Shown here: positions 9,359-58,196 of the stretch, in pieces | How positions within the stretch are numbered: the first letter of the stretch is position 1 | Layout: every line of letters begins with the position of its first letter | Origin: Burkholderiales bacterium | GTDB taxonomy: Bacteria; Pseudomonadota; Gammaproteobacteria; Burkholderiales; Burkholderiaceae_C | Length of the DNA stretch: 64,000 bases | Direction of reading: 5' to 3' | NCBI GenBank assembly: GCA_016191525.1 | Contig: JACPOK010000038.1 | Location: 100,973-164,972 of the forward strand | Notes under the pieces: generated by a model | Told to the model about the DNA's origin: nothing | Seen by the model: only the letters and a program-made list of their open reading frames with translations | Databases searched by the model: none | Made by a program: the position numbers and the translations under genes

Positions 9359-10257
9359 ACCTCGCCTTGCTGGCAGCAGCCGCCACCGGAGTGCAGGTGG
9401 GCGCAGCCATCGTGGCGTCGCGGTTCGCCGTGGCGGAAGTGCCGCCGCTGACGCTGGCGATGCTGCGTTATGCCATCGGGTTTGCCTGCCTCCTGCCCTT
9501 CGTTTGGGAGGGAAAAAGGCCTGTAGGGCGCACCCAGCATGCGTGGGCGGCTACAAAATCGATAGCACCCGACCTTTTCGCCATGGCCGCGCTGGGCATC
9601 GGCCAGTTCGGCATCCTGATCGCGTTGCTCAATTTCGGGCTGCAGCGCGTGGGTTCCGCCCAGGCCGCGCTGATCTTCAGCCTCTTTCCCCTGCTCACGC
9701 TGATGCTGTCGGCCGCCCTCGGCCGCGAGCGGGTAACGGCGGCGCTGGTGTTTGGCGTGCTGCTTTCCGTGGCGGGCATCGCCGTGTCGCTGTCGGCGCG
9801 GCTGCAGGGCACGGGCGACTGGTGGGGCGAAGCGGCCGTCGCCGCTGCCGCCTGCACCGGCGCGGTTTGCAGCGTGCTGTACCGCCCCTACCTGCAGCGC
9901 TACCCCACCCTTGCGGTCTCGGCCTTCGCGATGCTGGCCTCGGTGCTGTTCCTGGCCGTGCTGGCGCTTGGGGAGGCCTGGCCCACGCGCGTCAGTTCTT
10001 TCAGCGCGCAGGCCTGGGCTGCGACAGGTTTCATCGGCGTGTCCAGCGGCATCGGCTACTACTGGTGGCTCTATGCGCTCAAGCACGAATCGCCGACGCG
10101 GGTCACGGTGTTCCTCTCGCTCAACCCCGTGACGGCGGCGCTGCTCGGCTGGGCCTTCCTGGGCGAAGCGCTGCGCCTGGAAGTGCTGGCCGCGCTGGTG
10201 CTGATTGCCGGGGGCTTGTGGTTAGCCACACGGCCCGCGCCACCCTCGCGCCGATAA
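9355..10257 (+). CDS. DMT/EamA family transporter
   Basis: Two EamA repeats with about 10 hydrophobic segments. There is no in-frame ATG near the start; a CTG at 9355 overlaps the upstream TGA. Confidence 0.82.
   Translation: MNLALLAAAATGVQVGAAIVASRFAVAEVPPLTLAMLRYAIGFACLLPFVWEGKRPVGRTQHAWAATKSIAPDLFAMAALGIGQFGILIALLNFGLQRVGSAQAALIFSLFPLLTLMLSAALGRERVTAALVFGVLLSVAGIAVSLSARLQGTGDWWGEAAVAAAACTGAVCSVLYRPYLQRYPTLAVSAFAMLASVLFLAVLALGEAWPTRVSSFSAQAWAATGFIGVSSGIGYYWWLYALKHESPTRVTVFLSLNPVTAALLGWAFLGEALRLEVLAALVLIAGGLWLATRPAPPSRR
9512..9567 (+). repeat. Dispersed ~56-bp repeat, copy A (in frame inside the DMT gene)
   Basis: GAAAAAGGCCTGTAGGGCGCACCCAGCATGCGTGGGCGGCTACAAAATCGATAGCA. Hand count 36/56 ungapped identity to copy E and 32/47 to the core of copy D. 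Confidence 0.8.
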
Positions 10258-24756: not shown

Positions 24757-27274
<2,518 letters not shown>

Positions 27275-32828: not shown

Positions 32829-34004
32829 TTATTCAGGCACGAAGCCGTAGATGCCGCCGCCGTGCGTTACGACCACCAGGGTGTTGCCCGCCAGGACAGG
32901 GGCGGCGGCCACGGCCGTGCCGTCGGTCGTGAGGCGCGTGAGCGGCGTTCCATCGGTGCGGGACAGCAGGTGCACCAGGCCCGCGCTGTCACCCACCACC
33001 ACGGAGCGGCCCACCACCAGCGGGCCGGTCAGGCCGCGGTACAGCAGGCGGTCGCTGGTCCAGGCGCGCTCACCGGCGTCGCGCTTCCAGGCGACGACCT
33101 TGCCGTCGCTCTCGGTGCCGTAAACCATCTGCTCATCGCCATGCACGCCTTCGGCGCCATTGGCCGGCTTGGACCACAGCACGGTGCCGCGCGCCGCGTC
33201 CACACAGCCCACGCTGGCCTGGAAGGCGCGTGCGCAAACCGTATTGCCGACCCGGCTGGTGCGGCCCACCAGGTCCACCAGACGCTCGATATCGTTGGTG
33301 CCGCGGGGCGTTGCGATGGCAGCTTCCCAGCGGACGCTGCCATTGATCGGGTTCAGGCCCACCATGCGCCCACCCAGGCCGGTGACCAGGGTGTCGCCCA
33401 CCGCCAGCATCACGCCGGACTGGCGCAGCACCAGCGGCTCGCCGGGGCGCTGCTGGGTCCACAGCTTGCGGCCGCTCTGGCCGTCGAAAGCGCTGACCGA
33501 GCGGTCCGCCGCCAGCACAAAGACACGGCCTCCCGCCACGAAAGGCGCGGTGTAGCCCTGGGCCACCAGCTTCTGGCGCCAGGCCTGCTTGCCGCCGCTG
33601 AAGGCCACGACTTCGTTGCCGCGCGTGATGACCGCGGTGAGGTTGCCATCGCTGCCAACGCCGGCCGCGATCGGCCCGCCCGCACTGGCGCGCCACAACT
33701 CACGCCCGGTCGCGCCGTCGATCGCAACCACCGAGCCATCGCTGCTGGCCACGGCCACCGTGTTGCCACTGACGTTCACGGCCAGGGGAAAGCCGACTTC
33801 GCCGACGCGTGCCGTCCATGCCGGGCGCACGGCGATGAGGGCCGCGTTGGGTGCCAGTTCGGCCGGCTTGGGCTTTTCCACGGAACTGCTGCCGCCCAGC
33901 CAGGACGGCATCATGGAACAGCCGGAAATCGCGAGTGCTACAAAAACAGGAGCTGCGTAAGCAATACCGGTGCGGGTTGCAGCCGTTTTCTTCTCGTAAA
34001 TCAT
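32829..34004 (-). CDS. bamB: Outer membrane protein assembly lipoprotein BamB
   Basis: Lipobox LAISGC, PQQ-like propeller repeats, RGTNDIERLVD; yfgM-bamB-der synteny. Confidence 0.92.
   Translation of the reverse strand: MIYEKKTAATRTGIAYAAPVFVALAISGCSMMPSWLGGSSSVEKPKPAELAPNAALIAVRPAWTARVGEVGFPLAVNVSGNTVAVASSDGSVVAIDGATGRELWRASAGGPIAAGVGSDGNLTAVITRGNEVVAFSGGKQAWRQKLVAQGYTAPFVAGGRVFVLAADRSVSAFDGQSGRKLWTQQRPGEPLVLRQSGVMLAVGDTLVTGLGGRMVGLNPINGSVRWEAAIATPRGTNDIERLVDLVGRTSRVGNTVCARAFQASVGCVDAARGTVLWSKPANGAEGVHGDEQMVYGTESDGKVVAWKRDAGERAWTSDRLLYRGLTGPLVVGRSVVVGDSAGLVHLLSRTDGTPLTRLTTDGTAVAAAPVLAGNTLVVVTHGGGIYGFVPE
33936..33990 (-). repeat. ~56-bp repeat, copy B (encodes most of the BamB signal peptide)
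   Basis: Reverse complement GAAAACGGCTGCAACCCGCACCGGTATTGCTTACGCAGCTCCTGTTTTTGTAGCA; 40/55 ungapped identity to copy D. Confidence 0.8.
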
Positions 34005-34696
34005 GGTTTGGACCCTGCGGGAGCGGTGGTGGCCGAGGGGGCCGGCGTGAGCGACTTGGGATCCACGCCCAGCGCGGTCAGCTTGACTTCAACCAGCCGG
34101 CGGTATTCCGCCCGCTCGTCCAGGCCCTGGTAGGCCCTGGTGTATTCGGCCTTGGCCTCGTTCTTCTTGCCCTGCAGGCTGTAGATGTCGCCCCTGCGGT
34201 CGGCCACCATCGCCTCGAATTCCTTGGGGAACGATGCGCCCAGCTGCTTGAGCGCTTCGTCGTAGGCCTTCGCGTCGGCCAGCACGCCGGCCAGCCGCAG
34301 CCGGGCCACGGCCTGGTAGCCCTCATCGGAGGCCTTGTCGGCCACCCAGGCCAGTGCCGCCTTGGCAGCGTCGGTGTTGCCCTTCTCGGCGAAGGACTTG
34401 GCGGCCAGCATGCCGGCCTGCTGCGCGTACGTGGTGCCGCCGAACTTGTCCTTCATGTCGGCAAAGGACCGCTCCACGCGGGCGGCGTCGCCGCTGGTGA
34501 CGGCGCGCTCCACTTCGTCGTACATCGCGGCGGCCTGCACGGCCTGCGTGCGCTGCCAGTAATTCCAGCCGTTCCAGGCGGCGATCGAGCCGAATACGGC
34601 GATCAGCAGCCAGGTGATGGCATTGCCGTAGGTGTTCCAGAAGTGCTTGATCTCCGCAAGCTGCTCCTGCTCTTCAAGGTCGAGGTGTTTTGCCAT
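34001..34696 (-). CDS. yfgM: YfgM-family TPR membrane chaperone
   Basis: DLEEQEQL..IKHFW..YG, TM segment, TPR-like repeats, DRRGD. Confidence 0.88.
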   Translation of the reverse strand: MAKHLDLEEQEQLAEIKHFWNTYGNAITWLLIAVFGSIAAWNGWNYWQRTQAVQAAAMYDEVERAVTSGDAARVERSFADMKDKFGGTTYAQQAGMLAAKSFAEKGNTDAAKAALAWVADKASDEGYQAVARLRLAGVLADAKAYDEALKQLGASFPKEFEAMVADRRGDIYSLQGKKNEAKAEYTRAYQGLDERAEYRRLVEVKLTALGVDPKSLTPAPSATTAPAGSKP

Positions 34697-49702: not shown

Positions 49703-51121
49703 CTAGAAATTCAGTGTGCGCTTGTCGACGGCCAGCGCCGCTTCCTTGGTGGCCTCGGACAGCGACGGGTGCGCATGGCAGATGCGGGCCAGGTCTTCCG
49801 AGGACGCGCGGAACGCCATCGCCACCACGCACTCGGCGATCAGTTCACTGGCCATGGGGCCCACGATGTGCACGCCCAGGATTTCGTCGGTGGCGGCATC
49901 GGCCAGCATCTTCACCATGCCGGTGGTGTCGCCCAGCGCCCGCGCACGGCCGTTGGCCATGAAAGGGAAGGTGCCGGCCTTGTACTTCACGCCCGCGGCC
50001 TTGAGCTGCTGCTCGGTCTGGCCGACCCAGGCGATTTCCGGGCTGGTGTAGATCACCCAGGGAATGGTGTTGAAGTTCACGTGGCCGTGCTGGCCGGCGA
50101 TGCGCTCGGCCACCGCGACGCCCTCCTCCTCGGCCTTGTGCGCGAGCATGGGGCCGCGCACCACGTCGCCGATGGCCCACACGCCCGGCAGGTTGGTCCG
50201 GCACTCCTCATCGACGACCACGGCGCCGCGCTCGTCCAGCTTCAGGCCAACGGCTTCGGGATTCAGGCCGATGGTATTGGGCACGCGGCCGATGGAGACG
50301 ATCAGCTTGTCAACATCCAGCGCCTGCGCCTCGCCCCTGGCATTCGTATAGGCGATCGACACGCCCTTCTTGCCCGTCTTGATTTCGCCCACCTTCACGC
50401 CCAGCTCGATCTTCAGGCCCTGCTTGTCGAAGGCCTTCTTCGCTTCCCTGGCGATCTGCTCGTCCACCGCGCCCAGGAAAGTGGGCAGGCCTTCGAGGAT
50501 GGTCACGTCCGAGCCGAGGCGCCGCCAGACGGAACCCATCTCCAGCCCGATGACGCCGGAGCCGATCAGGCCCAGCTTCTTCGGTACGCCCTGGATGCGC
50601 AGCGCGCCGTCGTTCGAAAGGATGTTCTCCTCGTCGAACGGCGTGCCGGGCAGCGCGCGGGCATTGGAGCCGGTGGCCACGATGATGTTCTTGCCCACCA
50701 GCGACTCTTCGCCAGCCTTGACTTCGTAGCCGCCGTCCGCGGCCTTCGCGAACGAGCCGCGGCCGTGGAAAAACGTCACCTTGTTCTTCTTGAACAGGAA
50801 CACGATGCCGTCGTTGTTCTGCTTCACGACCGTGTCCTTGCGGGCCAGCATCTTCGCGGCATCCAGCGCCAGGCCTTTCACTTCAATGCCGTGTTCGGCG
50901 AAGTGCTTGCCGGCGTGCTCGAAGTGTTCCGAGGACTGCAGCAGCGCCTTGGACGGGATGCAGCCTACGTTGGTGCAGGTGCCGCCCAGGGCCGGGCCGC
51001 CCTTGGCGTTCTTCCATTCGTCGATGCAGGCGGTGTTGAAGCCCAGCTGCGCCGCGCGGATGGCGGCGATGTAGCCGCCGGGACCGCCGCCGATGACGAT
51101 CACGTCAAAGTTCTTTGCCAT
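49703..51121 (-). CDS. lpdA: Dihydrolipoamide dehydrogenase (E3)
   Basis: [25 protein letters not shown]. Start reassigned to 51121. Confidence 0.96.
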
Positions 51122-51131
51122 CTTCGGTACC

Positions 51132-52388
51132 TCAGATGTCAAAGAGAAGGCGCGACGGATCTTCCAGCGCTTCCTTCATCGCCACCAGGCCCAGCACGGC
51201 TTCGCGGCCGTCGATGATGCGGTGGTCGTAGCTCATGGCCAGGTAGTTCATCGGCCGCACCACCACCTGCCCGTTCTCCACGACGGCGCGGTCCTTGGTG
51301 GCGTGCACGCCCAGGATGGCCGATTGCGGCGGATTGATGATGGGGGTGGACAGCATCGAGCCGAACACGCCGCCGTTGGAAATGGAAAAGGTGCCGCCGG
51401 TCATCTCTTCGATGCCCAGCTTTCCGTCGCGCGCCTTGGCGCCGTACTCGGCGATCTTCTTCTCGATGTCGGCGAAGCTCATCTGGTCGGCATTGCGCAG
51501 GATGGGCACCACCAGGCCGCGCGGGGAGCCCACGGCGATGCCGATGTCGAAGTAGCCGTGGTAGACGATGTCGTTGCCGTCGACCGATGCGTTGATCACC
51601 GGGTATTTCTTCAGCGCATGAACCGCCGCCTTCACGAAGAAGCTCATGAAGCCGATCTTCACGCCGTGCTCCTTCTCGAACTTCTCCTGGAAGCGCTTGC
51701 GCATTTCCATCACCGGAGCCATGTTCACTTCGTTGAACGTGGTGAGGATGGCGTTGCTCGACTGCGACTGCAGCAGGCGCTCGGCCACGCGGGCCCGCAG
51801 TCGGCTCATGGGCACGCGCTGTTCGGGCCGCTGCCCCAGGTCCGGCGCCGCCACGGACGCGTTCACCTGGGGGAGGAAAGCGGCTGCAGGGCGCGCCGGC
51901 TGTGCTTGGGCAGCTACAGATTTAGGAGCAGACGCAGCGCCGAGCACGTCCGCCTTGAGCACGCGGCCGTCCTTGCCGGTGCCCGGCACGGAGCCGGCGG
52001 CCAGGTTGTTGTCGGCCATCAGCTTGGCGGCTGCCGGCATCGCGATGCCGGCCTTGCTGCCCACCGAAGCGGCGGCTGCCGGCGCCGCCGCAGCGGCGGG
52101 CACGGCAGCTGCTGCGGCCGGGGCCGGGGCCACCGCCACGCTCTTGCCGTCGGTATCGATCTTCGCGATCAGCTGCTCGGCGGCCACCGTGCTGCCGTCG
52201 GCCTGCACGATTTCGGCCAACACGCCGGCTGCGGGCGCGGGCACTTCCAGCACCACCTTGTCGGTCTCGATCTCGATCAGGATCTCATCCATCGCCACGG
52301 CGTCGCCGGGCTTCTTTTTCCACTGCAGCAGGGTTGCCTCGGCAACCGATTCGGACAGCTGCGGGACTTTGACTTCTACGATAGCCAT
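51132..52388 (-). CDS. sucB: 2-oxoglutarate dehydrogenase E2 (dihydrolipoyl succinyltransferase)
   Basis: Lipoyl domain ETDKV, E3-binding domain [17 protein letters not shown]. Confidence 0.96.
51876..51930 (+). repeat. ~56-bp repeat, copy D (antisense, in frame in the SucB linker)
   Basis: GAAAGCGGCTGCAGGGCGCGCCGGCTGTGCTTGGGCAGCTACAGATTTAGGAGCA; read on the minus strand as [18 protein letters not shown]. Confidence 0.82.
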
Positions 52389-52405: not shown

Positions 52406-55276
52406 TTATTTGGTTAAGACGAAGCCCTTGAGCTTGCCGAAGGCGCCGTCGACCAGGGCCTTCTGCTGCTCCTGGTGCAGGTGCGAGTAGCCCACCGCGG
52501 GCGAGGCGGAGGCGGCGCGGCCGGAGTAACCCAGCTTCTGGCCTTCCAGCATGTTCTCGTGGATGTAGTGCTGCACGAAGAACCAGGCGCCCTGGTTCTG
52601 CGGCTCGTCCTGCGTCCAGACGATGTCGGTGGCGTTCGGGTACTTCTTGAGCTCGGCCGCGAAGGCCTTGTGCGGGAACGGATAGAGCTGCTCCACGCGC
52701 AGGATGACCGTGTCGTCAGCGCCCTTTTCCTCGCGCTTCTTGGCCAGGTCGTAATACACCTTGCCCGAGCACAGCACGATGCGCTTGACCTTCTCGGCCT
52801 TCAGTTCCTTGTTCTCGGGAATGATGGTCTGGAAGCTGCCCTTGGTGAACTCCACCAGCGGCGAGGCGGCGTCCTTGTTCCGAAGCAGCGACTTGGGCGT
52901 CATGATGATCAGTGGCTTGCGCAGCGGGCGGATCATCTGGCGGCGCAGCACATGGAAGATCTGGCTGGCCGTGGTCGGCTGCACCACCTGGATGTTGGTG
53001 TCGGCCGACAGCTGCATGAAGCGCTCCAGCCGCGCCGAGCTGTGCTCCGGGCCCTGGCCTTCATAGCCGTGCGGCAGCATCAGCGTGATGCCGTTCACGC
53101 GGCCCCACTTCACTTCACCCGAGGCGATGAACTGGTCGATCACCACCTGTGCGCCGTTGGCGAAATCGCCGAACTGCGCTTCCCAGATCACCAGGGTATT
53201 GGGGTCGTTGGAGGCATAGCCGTACTCGAAACCCAGCACCGCCTCTTCGGACAGGATGGAGTCGATCACGACGTAGGGGGCCTGGTTGTCGGCCACGTTG
53301 CACAGCGGCGTGTAGGTGCCGATGTCCCACTTTTCGCGGTTCTGGTCGTGCAGCACAGAGTGCCGGTGGGTGAAGGTGCCCCGCCCGCAATCCTCGCCCG
53401 ACAGGCGCACCGGGTAGCCGCTGGCCACCAGCGATGCGAAGGCCATGTGCTCGCCCATGCCCCAGTCGACATTGGTCTCGCCGCGGCCCATGGCGGCGCG
53501 GTCGTCCAGCACTTTCTTGACCAGGGGATGCGCAGTGAAGTCGGCCGGCAAAGTGGTGATCTTCTCGGCCAGGCGCTTCCATTCCGCGGTGGGAATGGCC
53601 GTGTCGGCCGCGTCGGTCCACTTCTTGCCCAGGTAAGGGCTCCAGTCGACCGCGTACTTGCTCTTGAAGTTGGTCAGCACCGGGTCGAACGTGTTCTTGC
53701 CGGCGTCCAGCGCTGCGCGCAGCGCCTTGACCATGTCGTCGCCCAGCGTCTCGCCCATGCCCTGCGCCGTCAGCTTGTCGGCGTAGAGGCGCCTCGTGCC
53801 GGGGTGCTGGCCGATCTTCTTGTACATCAGCGGCTGGGTCAGGGAAGGCGTGTCCTGCTCGTTGTGGCCGAGCTTGCGGAAGCAGACGATGTCCACCACC
53901 ACGTCCTTGGCGAACTCCATGCGGTAGTCCAGCGCCAGGCGGGTGGCCAGCACCACGGCTTCGGGATCGTCGCCATTCACGTGCAGTACCGGCGCCTCGA
54001 TCATCTTGACGACGTCGGTGCAGTACAGCGTGGAGCGGCTGTCACGCGGGTCCGAGGTGGTGAAGCCGATCTGGTTGTTGATGACGATGTGCACCGTGCC
54101 GCCGGTGAAGTAGCCGCGGGTTTCGGCCAGCGCCAGCGTTTCCATCACCACGCCCTGCCCTGCGAAGGCGGCGTCGCCGTGCACCTGCACTGGCAGCACC
54201 TGCTTGCCCTGCGGGTCGGCGCGGCGGTCCATCCGGGCCCGAACGGACCCTTCGACCACAGGGTTGACGATTTCCAGGTGGGACGGGTTGAAGGCCAGCG
54301 TCAGGTGGACCGGGCCGCCGGAGGTGGTCACGTCCGAGCTGAAGCCCTGGTGGTACTTGACGTCACCGGAAGGCAGGTCTTCCTTGGCGGTGTGGTCGAA
54401 CTCGGCGAACAGGTCGGCCGGCACCTTGCCCAGCGAATTGACCAGCACATTCAGCCGGCCGCGATGCGCCATGCCGATCACGATTTCCTGCACGCCCTTG
54501 GCGCCGGCTTCCTGGATCAGCTCATCAAGGGAGGCGATGAAGCTCTCGCCGCCTTCCAGAGAAAAGCGCTTCTGGCCAACGTACTTGGTGTGCAGGAAGC
54601 GCTCCAGGCCTTCGGCAGCCGTCAGGCGGTCGAGGATGTGCCTTTTTTTCTCGGCCGAGAAGTTGGGCTTGCTGCGGATCGATTCGAGCTTTTGCTGCCA
54701 CCAGCGCTTCTTGCCCTGGTCGCTGATGTACATGTACTCGGCGCCGATGGTGCCGCAGTAGGTTTCGCGCAGCGCGTTGATCAGCTCGCGCAGCGACATC
54801 GACTCCTTGCCGAAGAAGGTGTTGCTGGTGTTGAACACGATTTCCTGGTCGGCATCCGAGAAGCCGTAGAAGGAAGCCTCGAGTTCGGGGATCTTTTCGC
54901 GCTCGGTGCGCTTCAGGGGGTCCAGGTCGGCCCAGCGGGCGCCGACGTTGCGGTAGGCGGCGATGAGCTGCTGCACGGCCGTGCGCTTGCGGCCCATTTC
55001 GGAGTCGGCGCCGGTGGCCTGCACCACGCGTGTGCCACCCTGCTTGGCGCGCTCGGCGAAGGCATTGACCACGGGCAGGTGCGGCACGTCCCTGGCATTG
55101 CTGCCGTCGACGGCGGGCACGTTCTGCAGGGCGTCGAAATAGTCGCGCCAGGTGTCGGGCACGCTGCCGGGGTTGGCGAGGTAGTTTTCGTACATCTCCT
55201 CGACATAGGGCGCGTTGCCGCCGAAGAGATAGGAATTGCCTTGATAGGCCGTGTAGACGGAGCTGGGCTCACTCAT
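52406..55276 (-). CDS. sucA: 2-oxoglutarate dehydrogenase E1
   Basis: [37 protein letters not shown]. Confidence 0.97.
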
Positions 55277-55311
55277 GCTGTTCGCTGACTTTCCGTCTCC
55301 CTGCAGGAGAC

Positions 55312-55378
55312 ATTGGCTGGTTCAAGAAACCTCCCGCGACACGGCTGGACCGGATGGCGGATGCGACTGTGGCTGGAA
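55312..55378 (-). ncRNA. Probable sucA RNA motif (cis-regulatory leader)
   Basis: Minus strand ...GTCGCATCCGCCATCCGGTCCAGCCGTGTCGCGGGAGGTTTCTTGAACCAGC lies just 5' of sucA. It matches my recollection of the Burkholderiales sucA motif core (CCG..CGGTCAAGCCGTGTCGCGGAAGGTT..AACC). Not checked with Infernal. Confidence 0.7.
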
Positions 55379-55424: not shown

Positions 55425-56270
55425 TCAGCGCGGGATGGCTGGCGCCTGGCGCGCACCGCTGTTGTATTCGCGGCTTTCCTCATTCGATTTGCGCTGCCAC
55501 GCTTCGCGCATCTTCGTCACGGCTTCACGATCGGACATGGTGCTGCCCGTGGGCGGCGCCACATCTGCCGGGGGAGTAAATTCGATGCCGAACTGCCGCT
55601 TCATCGAGAGGTTGCAGGCCAGGTGGTCGCCGGCGGACGGCTGCGACCGCTTGCGTATGCTTTCGTCGCGCAGGTAGCTCATCACCGAATCGGCCTGCTC
55701 ATGGGTGTGCGGCAGCCCCAACACGTGGCCCATCTCGTGCACCACCACCGAGGGCAGGTCGGTCATGCGCGGGTTCAGCTCGATGCCGGTTTGCAGGCTG
55801 CCGGTGCCTGCGATCCCGCCGCCGTTGGCGCTTGCCTTCAGGTAATCCAGCCGCCAGCGGATGCTGACGCGCTCGGGCCTGCCGTCGGCCTGATACGGCG
55901 CCCGCCCGCCATAGCTCAGGTCCACCTTGCAGCCGTCCATCCAGGCTTGCATGGCCCGGCGGATCGCCGCCTCGACGGTGGCGGCAGGATGCTCGGCCGG
56001 CTCGTTGCCGGGGTCGTAATACAGCGTGAAGGCCGCGCGCACTTCCGGCTTGTACAGGCTGGCGGGCCGGGACGCCGCAGCCGCCGGTGCTGCCAGCCTG
56101 GGCAATTTGACCAGCGCTTCCCGGTCGTTGCCGCCCGATTCATTGCAAGGCGCATCCTTGTACGCCGTGCGCCCACCAGCGCCGGTGCAGCGGTAGACGG
56201 TGGGTTGCGCCTGGGCGGCCGCAGCACAGGCCAGCAAGCCCGCCAGTGCGCAGGCCGCTCTCATTTTCAT
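55425..56270 (-). CDS. Secreted DUF4124-like + matrixin/metzincin zinc metalloprotease
   Basis: Signal peptide, YRCTGAGGRTAYKDAPC, HEMGHVLGLPH plus Met-turn SVMSY. Start 56270 or 56291. Confidence 0.78.
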   Translation of the reverse strand: MKMRAACALAGLLACAAAAQAQPTVYRCTGAGGRTAYKDAPCNESGGNDREALVKLPRLAAPAAAASRPASLYKPEVRAAFTLYYDPGNEPAEHPAATVEAAIRRAMQAWMDGCKVDLSYGGRAPYQADGRPERVSIRWRLDYLKASANGGGIAGTGSLQTGIELNPRMTDLPSVVVHEMGHVLGLPHTHEQADSVMSYLRDESIRKRSQPSAGDHLACNLSMKRQFGIEFTPPADVAPPTGSTMSDREAVTKMREAWQRKSNEESREYNSGARQAPAIPR

Positions 56271-56311
56271 AGCCGCATAAGCATGTCCCATGCGGTCTGC
56301 AGCCTACTTTC
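56256..56311 (-). repeat. ~56-bp repeat, copy F (spans the prpE stop and the protease start)
   Basis: Reverse complement GAAAGTAGGCTGCAGACCGCATGGGACATGCTTATGCGGCTATGAAAATGAGAGCG; 26/35 identity to copy B over the core. Confidence 0.72.
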
Positions 56312-58196
56312 CCAATGAATCCGTGATCGCCCGCAGCGCGGCGGGGTCTTCGATGGTGGTCAGGTCGCCCGCGTCCCGGCCTTCGCACACCGCCTGGATT
56401 GCGCGCCGCAACAGCTTGCCGCTGCGCGTCTTGGGCAGCAGGCCGACGAAGTGCACGCGTGAGGGCCGGGCCACCGCGCCGAGCTGCTCGTCCACCACCT
56501 TCATGATCTCGCCTTCGAGCTTCATGCGGGCCGCCTCATCGCCCAGCGCGGCCGCATCGCGCGCGACCACGAAGGCCATCGCCACCTGGCCCTTGAGCGC
56601 GTCGGCCACGCCGACCACCGCCACCTCGGCCACGTTGCGGTGGCTGGAGATGCTCTCTTCGATCTCGCGCGTGCCCAGCCGGTGGCCGGCCACGTTGATC
56701 ACGTCGTCGGTGCGGCCCAGGATGTAGTAGTAGCCGTCCTGTTCGCGGATGCCCCAGTCGAAGGTGCTGTAGACCATCCTGCCGGGAATGCTCTGCCAGT
56801 AGGTCTTGACGAAGCGCGCGTCGTCGCCCCAGATGGTCTGCATGAAGCCCGGCGGCGTGGGTCCCTCGATGACGACGACGCCCTTCTCGCCCGGCTGCGT
56901 CAACTCCTCTCCCGTGCCCTCATGGACGATCTTCACCTTGAACCCGTACATGGGCACGCCGGGGCTGCCGAACTTGCTGGCCTTCTTCTCCACGCCGTTG
57001 GCCACGGTCAGGATGGGCCAGCCGCTCTCGGTCTGCCAGTAGTTGTCGATGATGGGCACGCCCAGCGCTTCGCTGATCCAGCGGCCGGTGGGTTCATCGA
57101 GCGGCTCGCCCGCCAGGTACAGCGCCTTCAGGCTGGACAGGTCGTACTTCTTCAGGAACGCCGGGTCCTGCTTCCTGAGCACGCGCACCGCCGTGGGCGC
57201 GCTGAACATCGCCTTGACCTTGTACTTCTCCACCAGGCTCCACCAGATGCCCGCGTCGGGCCGGACCGGCAGCCCCTCGTACATGATGGTGGCCATGCCC
57301 GCGATCAGCGGGCCGTAGACGATGTAGCTGTGGCCCACCACCCAGCCGATGTCGCTGGTGGAGAAATAGGTTTCTCCCGCCTCGCACTCGAAGATGTGCT
57401 TCATGCTGGCCGCCAGCGCCACCGCGTAGCCGCCGACGTCGCGCTGCACGCCCTTGGGCCGCCCGGTGGTGCCGCTGGTGTAGATGGTGTAGCTGATGTC
57501 GGTGGCGTCCAGCCACTCGCAGGGCACGCTGGTCCCGGCATGCTTATGCGACAGGGCCTCCCACGAATGGTCGCGGCCTTCCTGCATGGTGAAGGCCGCG
57601 AGGCCCCGGTCCACCATGATCACGGCTTGCGGCTTGTGGCTGGACAGGCGGATCGCCTCGTCCAGCAGCGGCTTGTATTCCACCACTTTCCCGCCGCGCG
57701 AGCCGGCATCGGCGCTGACGATGAGCCGGGGCGACGCGTCCTCGATGCGGGAGGCCAGCGCCATGGAAGCAAAACCGCCGAACACCACGGAGTGCACGGC
57801 GCCGATGCGGGCGCAGGCCAGCATCATGAAAGCGGCCTCGGCGATCATCGGCATGTAGATCAACACCCGGTCGCCCTTGTTCACGCCCAGGCCGAGCAGC
57901 ATGGCGGCGGCACGCTGCACCTGCTCGTGAAGCTCACGGAAGCTGTAGGTCTTTTCAGTGCCGGTTTCCGTGGAGACGTAGATCAGCGCCGGCTGCTCCG
58001 CGCGGTCCTTGAGGTGACGGTCGACCGCGTTGTGGCACAGGTTGGTGGTGCCGCCCACAAACCAGCGGGTGAATGGGGGGTTGGTGTTGTCGCAGATCGT
58101 TTGCGGCGGCGCCTGCCAGGCTATCAGTTGCGCCTGCTCGGCCCAGAAAGCCTCGGGCTCGGCCAGCGAACGCTGGTAGAAGTCGTCGTAATTCAT
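56304..58196 (-). CDS. prpE: Propionate--CoA ligase
   Basis: YTSGTTGRPKG, SDIGWVVGHSY, DNYWQTE, GRTDDVINVAGHR, KTRSGK. Confidence 0.9.
   Translation of the reverse strand: MNYDDFYQRSLAEPEAFWAEQAQLIAWQAPPQTICDNTNPPFTRWFVGGTTNLCHNAVDRHLKDRAEQPALIYVSTETGTEKTYSFRELHEQVQRAAAMLLGLGVNKGDRVLIYMPMIAEAAFMMLACARIGAVHSVVFGGFASMALASRIEDASPRLIVSADAGSRGGKVVEYKPLLDEAIRLSSHKPQAVIMVDRGLAAFTMQEGRDHSWEALSHKHAGTSVPCEWLDATDISYTIYTSGTTGRPKGVQRDVGGYAVALAASMKHIFECEAGETYFSTSDIGWVVGHSYIVYGPLIAGMATIMYEGLPVRPDAGIWWSLVEKYKVKAMFSAPTAVRVLRKQDPAFLKKYDLSSLKALYLAGEPLDEPTGRWISEALGVPIIDNYWQTESGWPILTVANGVEKKASKFGSPGVPMYGFKVKIVHEGTGEELTQPGEKGVVVIEGPTPPGFMQTIWGDDARFVKTYWQSIPGRMVYSTFDWGIREQDGYYYILGRTDDVINVAGHRLGTREIEESISSHRNVAEVAVVGVADALKGQVAMAFVVARDAAALGDEAARMKLEGEIMKVVDEQLGAVARPSRVHFVGLLPKTRSGKLLRRAIQAVCEGRDAGDLTTIEDPAALRAITDSLGK

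Follow-up and report, generated by a model that had tools for sequence, protein, structure and literature searches.

Translated repeats in the linkers of E2 enzymes have already been catalogued. The survey of intragenic GTAG/CGTC-tagged REPs by Di Nocera, De Gregorio and Rocco (2013; BMC Genomics 14:522, PMC3733652) includes, in its Additional file 3, REPs in Oter_4191 (E2o, residues 190-204) and Oter_4192 (E2p) of Opitutus terrae and in Sala_1235 (PDH E2) of Sphingopyxis alaskensis, and its authors suggest that intragenic REP inserts are neutral because they are located in flexible linkers. Rickettsia palindromic elements (RPEs; Ogata et al. 2000, 2002), the classic example of in-frame repeats, are, in the accounts given in PMC10969869 and PMC3733652, about 150 bp long and insert into genes, creating in-frame fusions. 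Among betaproteobacteria, the BRE (Beta-proteobacterial repeat element; Hot et al. 2011; BMC Genomics 12:207, PMC3110155) is commonest in Comamonadaceae, for example Polaromonas JS666; it reads TTTTTTGCCGCCGGGCGCCCAAGGCAAAAAGCCCCCTCGGGGGGCAGCAAGC..., has a GC content of 69%, often occurs in tandem and has some copies lying wholly within coding sequences.

The gene analysed here, sucB, encoding dihydrolipoamide succinyltransferase (E2o), lies in a 64,000-nt stretch of DNA from a Burkholderiales bacterium, hereafter the window. E2 chains of the 2-oxoacid dehydrogenases have Ala/Pro-rich inter-domain linkers in a swinging-arm architecture. The identity of the gene is that expected of an E2o: the domains are in the expected order (lipoyl, E3-binding, catalytic), sucB stands between lpd (49703-51142) and sucA (52406-55276), and the protein is 84-90% amino-acid identical to Comamonadaceae SucB. 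The features of the locus are as follows.

51132..52388, minus strand: sucB, E2o, 418 aa (ORF list, translation, Pfam)
SucB residues 5-77, minus strand: Biotin_lipoyl domain (Pfam)
51942..52046, minus strand: E3-binding (peripheral subunit-binding) domain, residues 115-149, immediately preceding the linker coded by the repeat (PF02817, E 3.9e-10)
51873..51932, minus strand: 20 repeat-coded sucB codons, S153-L172, antisense to the model orientation of the repeat family (translation, leave-one-out nhmmer)
51867..51933, plus strand: the sucB repeat copy in model orientation (nhmmer; model positions 14-80 of 82)
51144..51827, minus strand: catalytic acyltransferase domain (2-oxoacid_dh), residues 188-415 (PF00198, E 1.7e-82)

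The minus strand of 51873-51932 reads TCTGCTCCTAAATCTGTAGCTGCCCAAGCACAGCCGGCGCGCCCTGCAGCCGCTTTCCTC and is translated as SucB residues 153-172. These make up 20 of the roughly 38 residues that separate the E3-binding and catalytic domains, so that the Pfam domain borders identify the repeat-coded segment as inter-domain linker. A preliminary description of this DNA had read one repeat copy antisense as this linker, at residues 154-171 (51876-51929), with coordinates that are off by one base at most. An AlphaFold2 model of SucB built from a 25-sequence alignment had a mean pLDDT of 38.6, too poor to judge whether the segment is disordered. Just upstream of the repeat, at 51951-51959, the SucB sequence is GRVLKADVL, as against GRVTKGDVL in at least 90% of 24 aligned relatives; the two substitutions, T144L and G146A, fall at nearly invariant positions near the end of the E3-binding domain. 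Elsewhere in the operon, the one Rfam match at gathering thresholds in the whole window is the sucA RNA motif (RF01070, 71.5 bits), which immediately precedes sucA at 55283-55366 on the minus strand.

Searches confined to the window failed to reveal the repeat family, as no second copy was found there by exact, ≤3-mismatch or repeat-finding searches. The family was revealed by whole-genome short blastn followed by a profile. When the region was compared with the whole genome by sensitive blastn, numerous matches appeared on other contigs (27-47 nt, 85-100% identity), and an nhmmer profile built from these matches detected 266 copies genome-wide at E<1e-3 (300 with a second profile). The repeat unit is about 68 nt long, with the consensus GTTTTCAGAGGGAAAAAGGCCTGCAGAGCGCGCCAGCTGTGCGTGGGCAGCTATCAAATTTATAGCAAC and conservation falling to background beyond its ends, and the family has a GC content of 52% in a genome of 66% GC. 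The approximately 300 copies are all single, with no dimers and no pair within 300 nt, and both strands are equally used. Four sister copies lie within the window, and the other copies lettered in the preliminary description correspond to profile matches there.

9496..9570, plus strand: sister copy in an EamA/DMT transporter ORF, read in sense (PFVWEGKRPVGRTQHAWAATKSIAP; nhmmer E 1.9e-10; Pfam EamA)
26543..26608, minus strand: sister copy in hisZ, read in sense in a third frame (nhmmer E 4.2e-11; Pfam tRNA-synt_His 9-313)
33933..34006, minus strand: sister copy at the junction of a TPR_21 gene and bamB (nhmmer E 1.8e-7; ORFs, Pfam)
56253..56325, minus strand: weak, degenerate sister copy (nhmmer E 9.7e-4, or 3.5e-8 with a larger profile)

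Because the first profile had included the sucB copy, the profile was rebuilt from 120 copies with the sucB copy excluded. The resemblance on which the preliminary description had relied is highly significant against this leave-one-out profile (51874-51933, 50.8 bits, E 4.7e-13 genome-wide and 6e-15 over the window), and by its score the sucB copy ranks 115th of 300. It aligns gaplessly with 70 other copies and keeps the AT-rich GCTAC-AGATTTA-GGAGC end of the alignment. Within this 3' end the family's hairpin GCTAT-N7-ATAGC is shrunk to GCT...AGC (GCTACAGATTTAGGAGC). At the other end the copy departs from the family, with sucB's own CCCCAGGTG, which encodes LPQV, standing where the consensus has TTTTCAGAGG. 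These properties bear on whether an Ala/Pro linker simply resembles a GC-rich repeat by chance or composition, or whether the segment is an assembly artefact. The Ala codons (GCNGCNGCC) do resemble the repeat's conserved core TAGCTGCC, and the failure of ≤3-mismatch searches to find a second copy in the window could be read the same way; however, the leave-one-out significance and the gapless alignment extending through the AT-rich end both count against a compositional match, and 960 codon-shuffled linkers reached at most 4.9 bits. As for an artefact, the site lies in the middle of a 246-kb contig and the ORF is intact. We therefore give this explanation practically no weight.

The copy also stands out in its codon usage. 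With a codon table trained on 2222 long ORFs of the host genome, sucB codons 151-170 have a CAI of 0.24 and a GC3 of 0.35, compared with 0.73 and 0.87 for the whole gene, and no other 20-codon window among the 1796 in sucA, sucB and lpd has so low a CAI (0.42 for the next lowest outside the stretch). The codons singled out in the preliminary description as unusual for a highly biased gene (GCT, CCT, AAA, TCT and GTA) have relative adaptiveness values of 0.05-0.19, and the codon-adaptation scan thus bears out that observation. At the protein level, the Ala/Pro-rich character that had been thought suited to a linker is even more marked than expected from the family: the Ala+Pro fraction of the sucB copy is 0.57, the highest among the 222 copies open in the sucB frame (median, 0.29), and five bulky residues (Ile, Leu) of the consensus translation VAINLIAAHAQLARSAGLF are replaced in SucB by Pro, Ser, Val, Pro and Ala. 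Selection may have shaped this composition, and both filtering at fixation and tuning at a later stage would be compatible with it. Part of the Ala/Pro richness could also be retained ancestral sequence, as K-S-V-A of the host resembles K-P-S-V-A of relatives.

That the strongest rare-codon cluster of the operon lies exactly at a domain boundary raises the possibility that the repeat is kept as a rare-codon or RNA element, acting either on translation between the domains, which it would slow or regulate, or on the regulation of lpd downstream. Neither terminators nor promoters were found at the sucB repeat site, though, and the fold of the mRNA segment is no more stable than that of shuffled sequence (z -0.06). 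Moreover, 17 congeners and most relatives do without the repeat and use high-GC3 codons there, and the same repeat occurs in many unrelated genes and frames. We consider such a role very improbable, and the repeat at the sucB site would then have no DNA- or RNA-level function of its own.

Comparison with relatives pointed to a recent origin of the copy. A covariance model of the family, which scored at least 116 copies in the host genome, detected no copies in 24 same-genus genomes, apart from one marginal partial match, nor any in 16 genomes representing other families of that order. The repeat is likewise missing from the 17 same-genus sucB loci compared. In a SucB tree calculated with the linker masked, the host belongs to a clade of 13 members that includes Ramlibacter and Caenimonas sequences, and it is the sole carrier there; the other 12 members, like the 17 same-genus sucB genes, score at most 2 bits, at or below the codon-shuffle null, compared with 56.9 for the host, and the DNA flanking the site is 82-93% identical between the host and its clade relatives. 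When the linkers were aligned across relatives, a comparison proposed in the preliminary description, relatives had an Ala/Pro-rich stretch of 23 codons between DVLGA and LPQV (e.g. VAGGASKPSVAPVAAPAAPARAA) and the host 20, indicating that the repeat replaced the linker rather than lengthening SucB, which has 418 aa in the host and 422-426 aa in relatives.

We thus consider it highly probable that a copy of the ~68-nt dispersed repeat recently replaced a 23-codon Ala/Pro stretch and is tolerated as the SucB linker. On this account, the repeat would have entered sucB antisense and in frame, very probably after the split from the sampled same-genus species as judged from the sequence comparisons, and would have taken the place of the Ala/Pro-rich stretch with linker length kept. 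Either a suitable variant alone would have been fixable or the copy would have been tuned after arrival. It could persist because the segment would need only flexibility, non-stickiness and about the right length, for which an Ala/Pro-rich frame would suffice. As the genome contains one sucB only (a single match at E≤1e-60), SucB with the repeat linker presumably works.

The host is, however, not the only bacterium with repeat DNA at this site, and several genera argue for a longer history. Several Comamonadaceae sucB genes have AT-rich linker DNA in the same position, orientation and frame (in Polaromonas, for example, TCTGCTCCTAAATCAGTAGCTGCCAGCGCAATACC...), and a related repeat was found at the sucB site in Polaromonas, Rhodoferax, Simplicispira (S. 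metamorpha), Acidovorax (a MAG), Ottowia and further MAGs. The Polaromonas segment is a member of a related repeat family within the Polaromonas genome, and a profile of 11 non-sucB Polaromonas copies gave E values of 1e-7 to 6e-3 for nine sucB loci and weaker matches to two others. The host and Polaromonas sucB copies have their first 22 nt, GCTCCTAAATC(A/T)GTAGCTGCC, in common, and in Polaromonas the repeat-coded AIPTGAPT..LPQV lines up with a linker motif that is widespread, IPTG(V/A)PT..LPQV. The same-site repeats in other genera and the common 22-nt start fit an old resident as well as a new arrival. A repeat of this superfamily would then have been in sucB since an early Comamonadaceae ancestor, would have been kept or re-homogenised by gene conversion in the host, and would have drifted to high-GC codons in most relatives. 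The host-containing clade is a polytomy, so the host could branch first, as such a history would allow; the deep branches of the tree are poorly resolved.

The genera with a repeat at the sucB site are scattered in the SucB tree, and the remaining 80-odd sucB linkers, those of all congeners included, have no residual repeat similarity. Several results weigh against the longer history. The central 35 nt of the host sucB copy match the host consensus and not the Polaromonas type, and the flanking identity that ordinary RecA-mediated conversion requires is absent. Since both the copy and the family are absent from the clade and the genus and the centre of the copy equals the host consensus, we regard long residence as unlikely, though with enough in its favour to be weighed seriously. 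Across genera, the sucB site could have been repeatedly re-occupied, or an old copy could have persisted and been re-homogenised in some lineages. By eye, the reverse strand of the related repeat in one Polaromonas genome (G041, locus L115) reads like AceF linker 1 of the host, and the aceF site may likewise be common to several genera.

The sucB copy is one of many repeats translated in this genome. Copies were assigned to genes if a single frame stayed open across the copy and the 60 codons on either side had coding-type usage, and by this test 51 of the 266 copies lie inside genes and in frame, 27 in sense and 24 in antisense. Nineteen of these use the sucB frame (antisense), 19 and 6 use two sense frames, and 5 and 2 use two further frames. 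The sucB frame is stop-free in 78% of all copies, and the earlier suggestion that the element is stop-free and usable in both orientations thus extends to the family. Genes hosting in-frame copies include sucB, aceF, lpd, leuS, hscA, hisZ and pepN, along with genes encoding an ABC-F ATPase, a PBP1C-like protein and a SPOR protein. Two of the copies lie about 10-12 kb past the end of the window:

C36:176677-176741, sense: in-frame copy in linker 1 of AceF (PDH E2), reading VSEEKQAAAPATPAQAATKTVA (E 1.7e-5)
C36:174421-174485, sense: in-frame copy in the linker of the lipoyl-bearing E3, reading VPEEKTAAAPASSAQAATKTIA (E 8.1e-9)

Together with the copy in SucB, these show that three swinging-arm linkers of the 2-oxoacid dehydrogenase complexes are partly built of this repeat. 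Linker 2 of AceF (C36:176297-176434) was found to contain an inverted pair of another, 27-nt repeat, read as VRAEPVEA...PSTSSGRT, whose arms CCGTTCGGGCTGAGCCTGTCGAAGCCC and GCCCTTCGACAAGCTCAGGGCGAACGG each have about ten further copies in the genome. In sister species (loci L128, L129, L131, L133-L135 and L145), the AceF and E3 linkers carry unrelated GC-rich sequences that are in frame and, by eye, inverted-repeat-like, with translations such as SPSPQPSPQRGEG...SPSPSPA.AGEGRGEGG and VSPPPPGEGRVGA...PPPQPSPGGGG. Swinging-arm linkers are evidently sinks for whichever repeat a genome carries.

The lack of net length gain in sucB (-3 codons) is shared by other in-frame copies. In HscA (ATETIAAHAQLAGVAARFTIQ, C36:203318-203382), about 21 residues lying between the conserved motifs AKEALS and FE..T are replaced in a gapless alignment with seven congeners, with no length change, and the HisZ copy is likewise gapless against relatives, with the native sequence replaced in register and length unchanged; the LeuS copy lies in a length-variable region. 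Within a 62-nt window of hisZ, 18-23 of the 21-26 differences from each relative move the host towards the repeat consensus and 0-2 move it away, and some of those towards the consensus are synonymous and introduce the rare codons CTA, TCA and AAT. The native hisZ site of relatives is 48-55% identical to the repeat consensus, which is the best match in their 4-kb locus. Such prior resemblance of the native site is weak for hscA and absent for sucB and is therefore no general rule.

From these alignments, copies look as though they arise by conversion-like or templated-repair overwriting, not by transposition. We raise more tentatively the possibility that the family and its Comamonadaceae relatives as a whole spread by length-preserving, in-register overwriting, with the Ala-rich linkers of E2o, E2p and E3 as recurrent cassette sites. 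Overwriting would keep frames intact, which would explain why a fifth of the copies lie inside genes, and if it does operate, the E2o, E2p and E3 linkers would be rewritten repeatedly by whichever repeat family is active.

Structural analysis of the family allowed its comparison with mobile elements. Conserved structure was limited to the 5-bp GCTAT/ATAGC hairpin by RNAalifold, mutual information and per-copy folding; no covariation was found in the family, the highest column-pair mutual information being 0.15 bit and the mean fold z-score -1.2. A two-hairpin REP model was dropped, since no conserved structure was found apart from this hairpin. No target-site duplications were seen by eye in the flanks of the 45 best copies, and terminal inverted repeats were not found, since neither of the two ends, TTTTCAGAGG and ATAGCAAC, is an inverted copy of the other; on both grounds the family was not assigned to the MITEs. 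Adenine-specific variation like that of DGRs was not seen on inspection of the family conservation profile. The only gene of the Y1 (IS200-like) transposase family in the host genome (PF01797 at C8:211337, in the region C8:211289-211990) is a single-copy gene next to gltB. On either side of it stands one of a pair of perfect 20-nt inverted repeats (GGGGTCAGATTCCAATTAAT plus its complement) that are unrelated to the 68-nt repeat, whose nearest copy is about 7 kb away. Since the Y1 gene is not flanked by copies of the 68-nt repeat, we also set aside the interpretation of the family as a RAYT-mobilised REP or REPIN.

Our literature search found no description of this 68-nt family. Like the BRE, it is a betaproteobacterial repeat with some intragenic copies, but its copies are single, with 52% GC and a different consensus, and it was not identified with the BRE because its consensus is unlike the published Bordetella copies when compared by inspection. 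The likeness to RPEs, as these are portrayed in the sources cited above, is one of mode of action: both are selfish-looking families with many in-frame copies in unrelated housekeeping genes (51 of 266 here), and the hosts of RPEs stay functional. In contrast to that portrayal, the 68-nt repeat uses five of the six frames and produced no net lengthening in the three testable cases, so that it is not the peptide-adding insertion by which RPEs are recognised, and we did not class it among them.

The GTAG/CGTC-tagged REPs resemble the 68-nt family in being short, high-copy and mostly intergenic, with copies also in frame inside known genes, and about half of the 68-nt copies end in GTAGC. Nevertheless, the 68-nt repeat is longer, is not clearly palindromic, occurs as single copies without inverted pairs and carries GTAGC in part of its copies; in addition, the host's Y1 gene is flanked by unrelated inverted repeats, and copies of the 68-nt repeat replace sequence rather than add it. 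Compared with the usual Ala/Pro linkers of E2 enzymes, the SucB linker described here has the same position between the E3-binding and catalytic domains and a similar length and Ala/Pro-rich composition, but its DNA is a recognisable copy of a dispersed repeat with rare codons. It provides a clean, datable case of a housekeeping-enzyme linker made from repeat DNA, and repeat-built linkers are relevant to annotation, to the alignment of linkers and to thinking about where new peptide segments come from. If the length-preserving replacement seen in sucB, HscA and HisZ is general, it would constitute a mode of spread for short repeats that we did not find described in the literature. In sum, the sucB copy is a further case of a translated repeat in an E2 linker, and the less ordinary and more interesting point, compared with the linker case itself, is the length-preserving way in which copies appear to arise.
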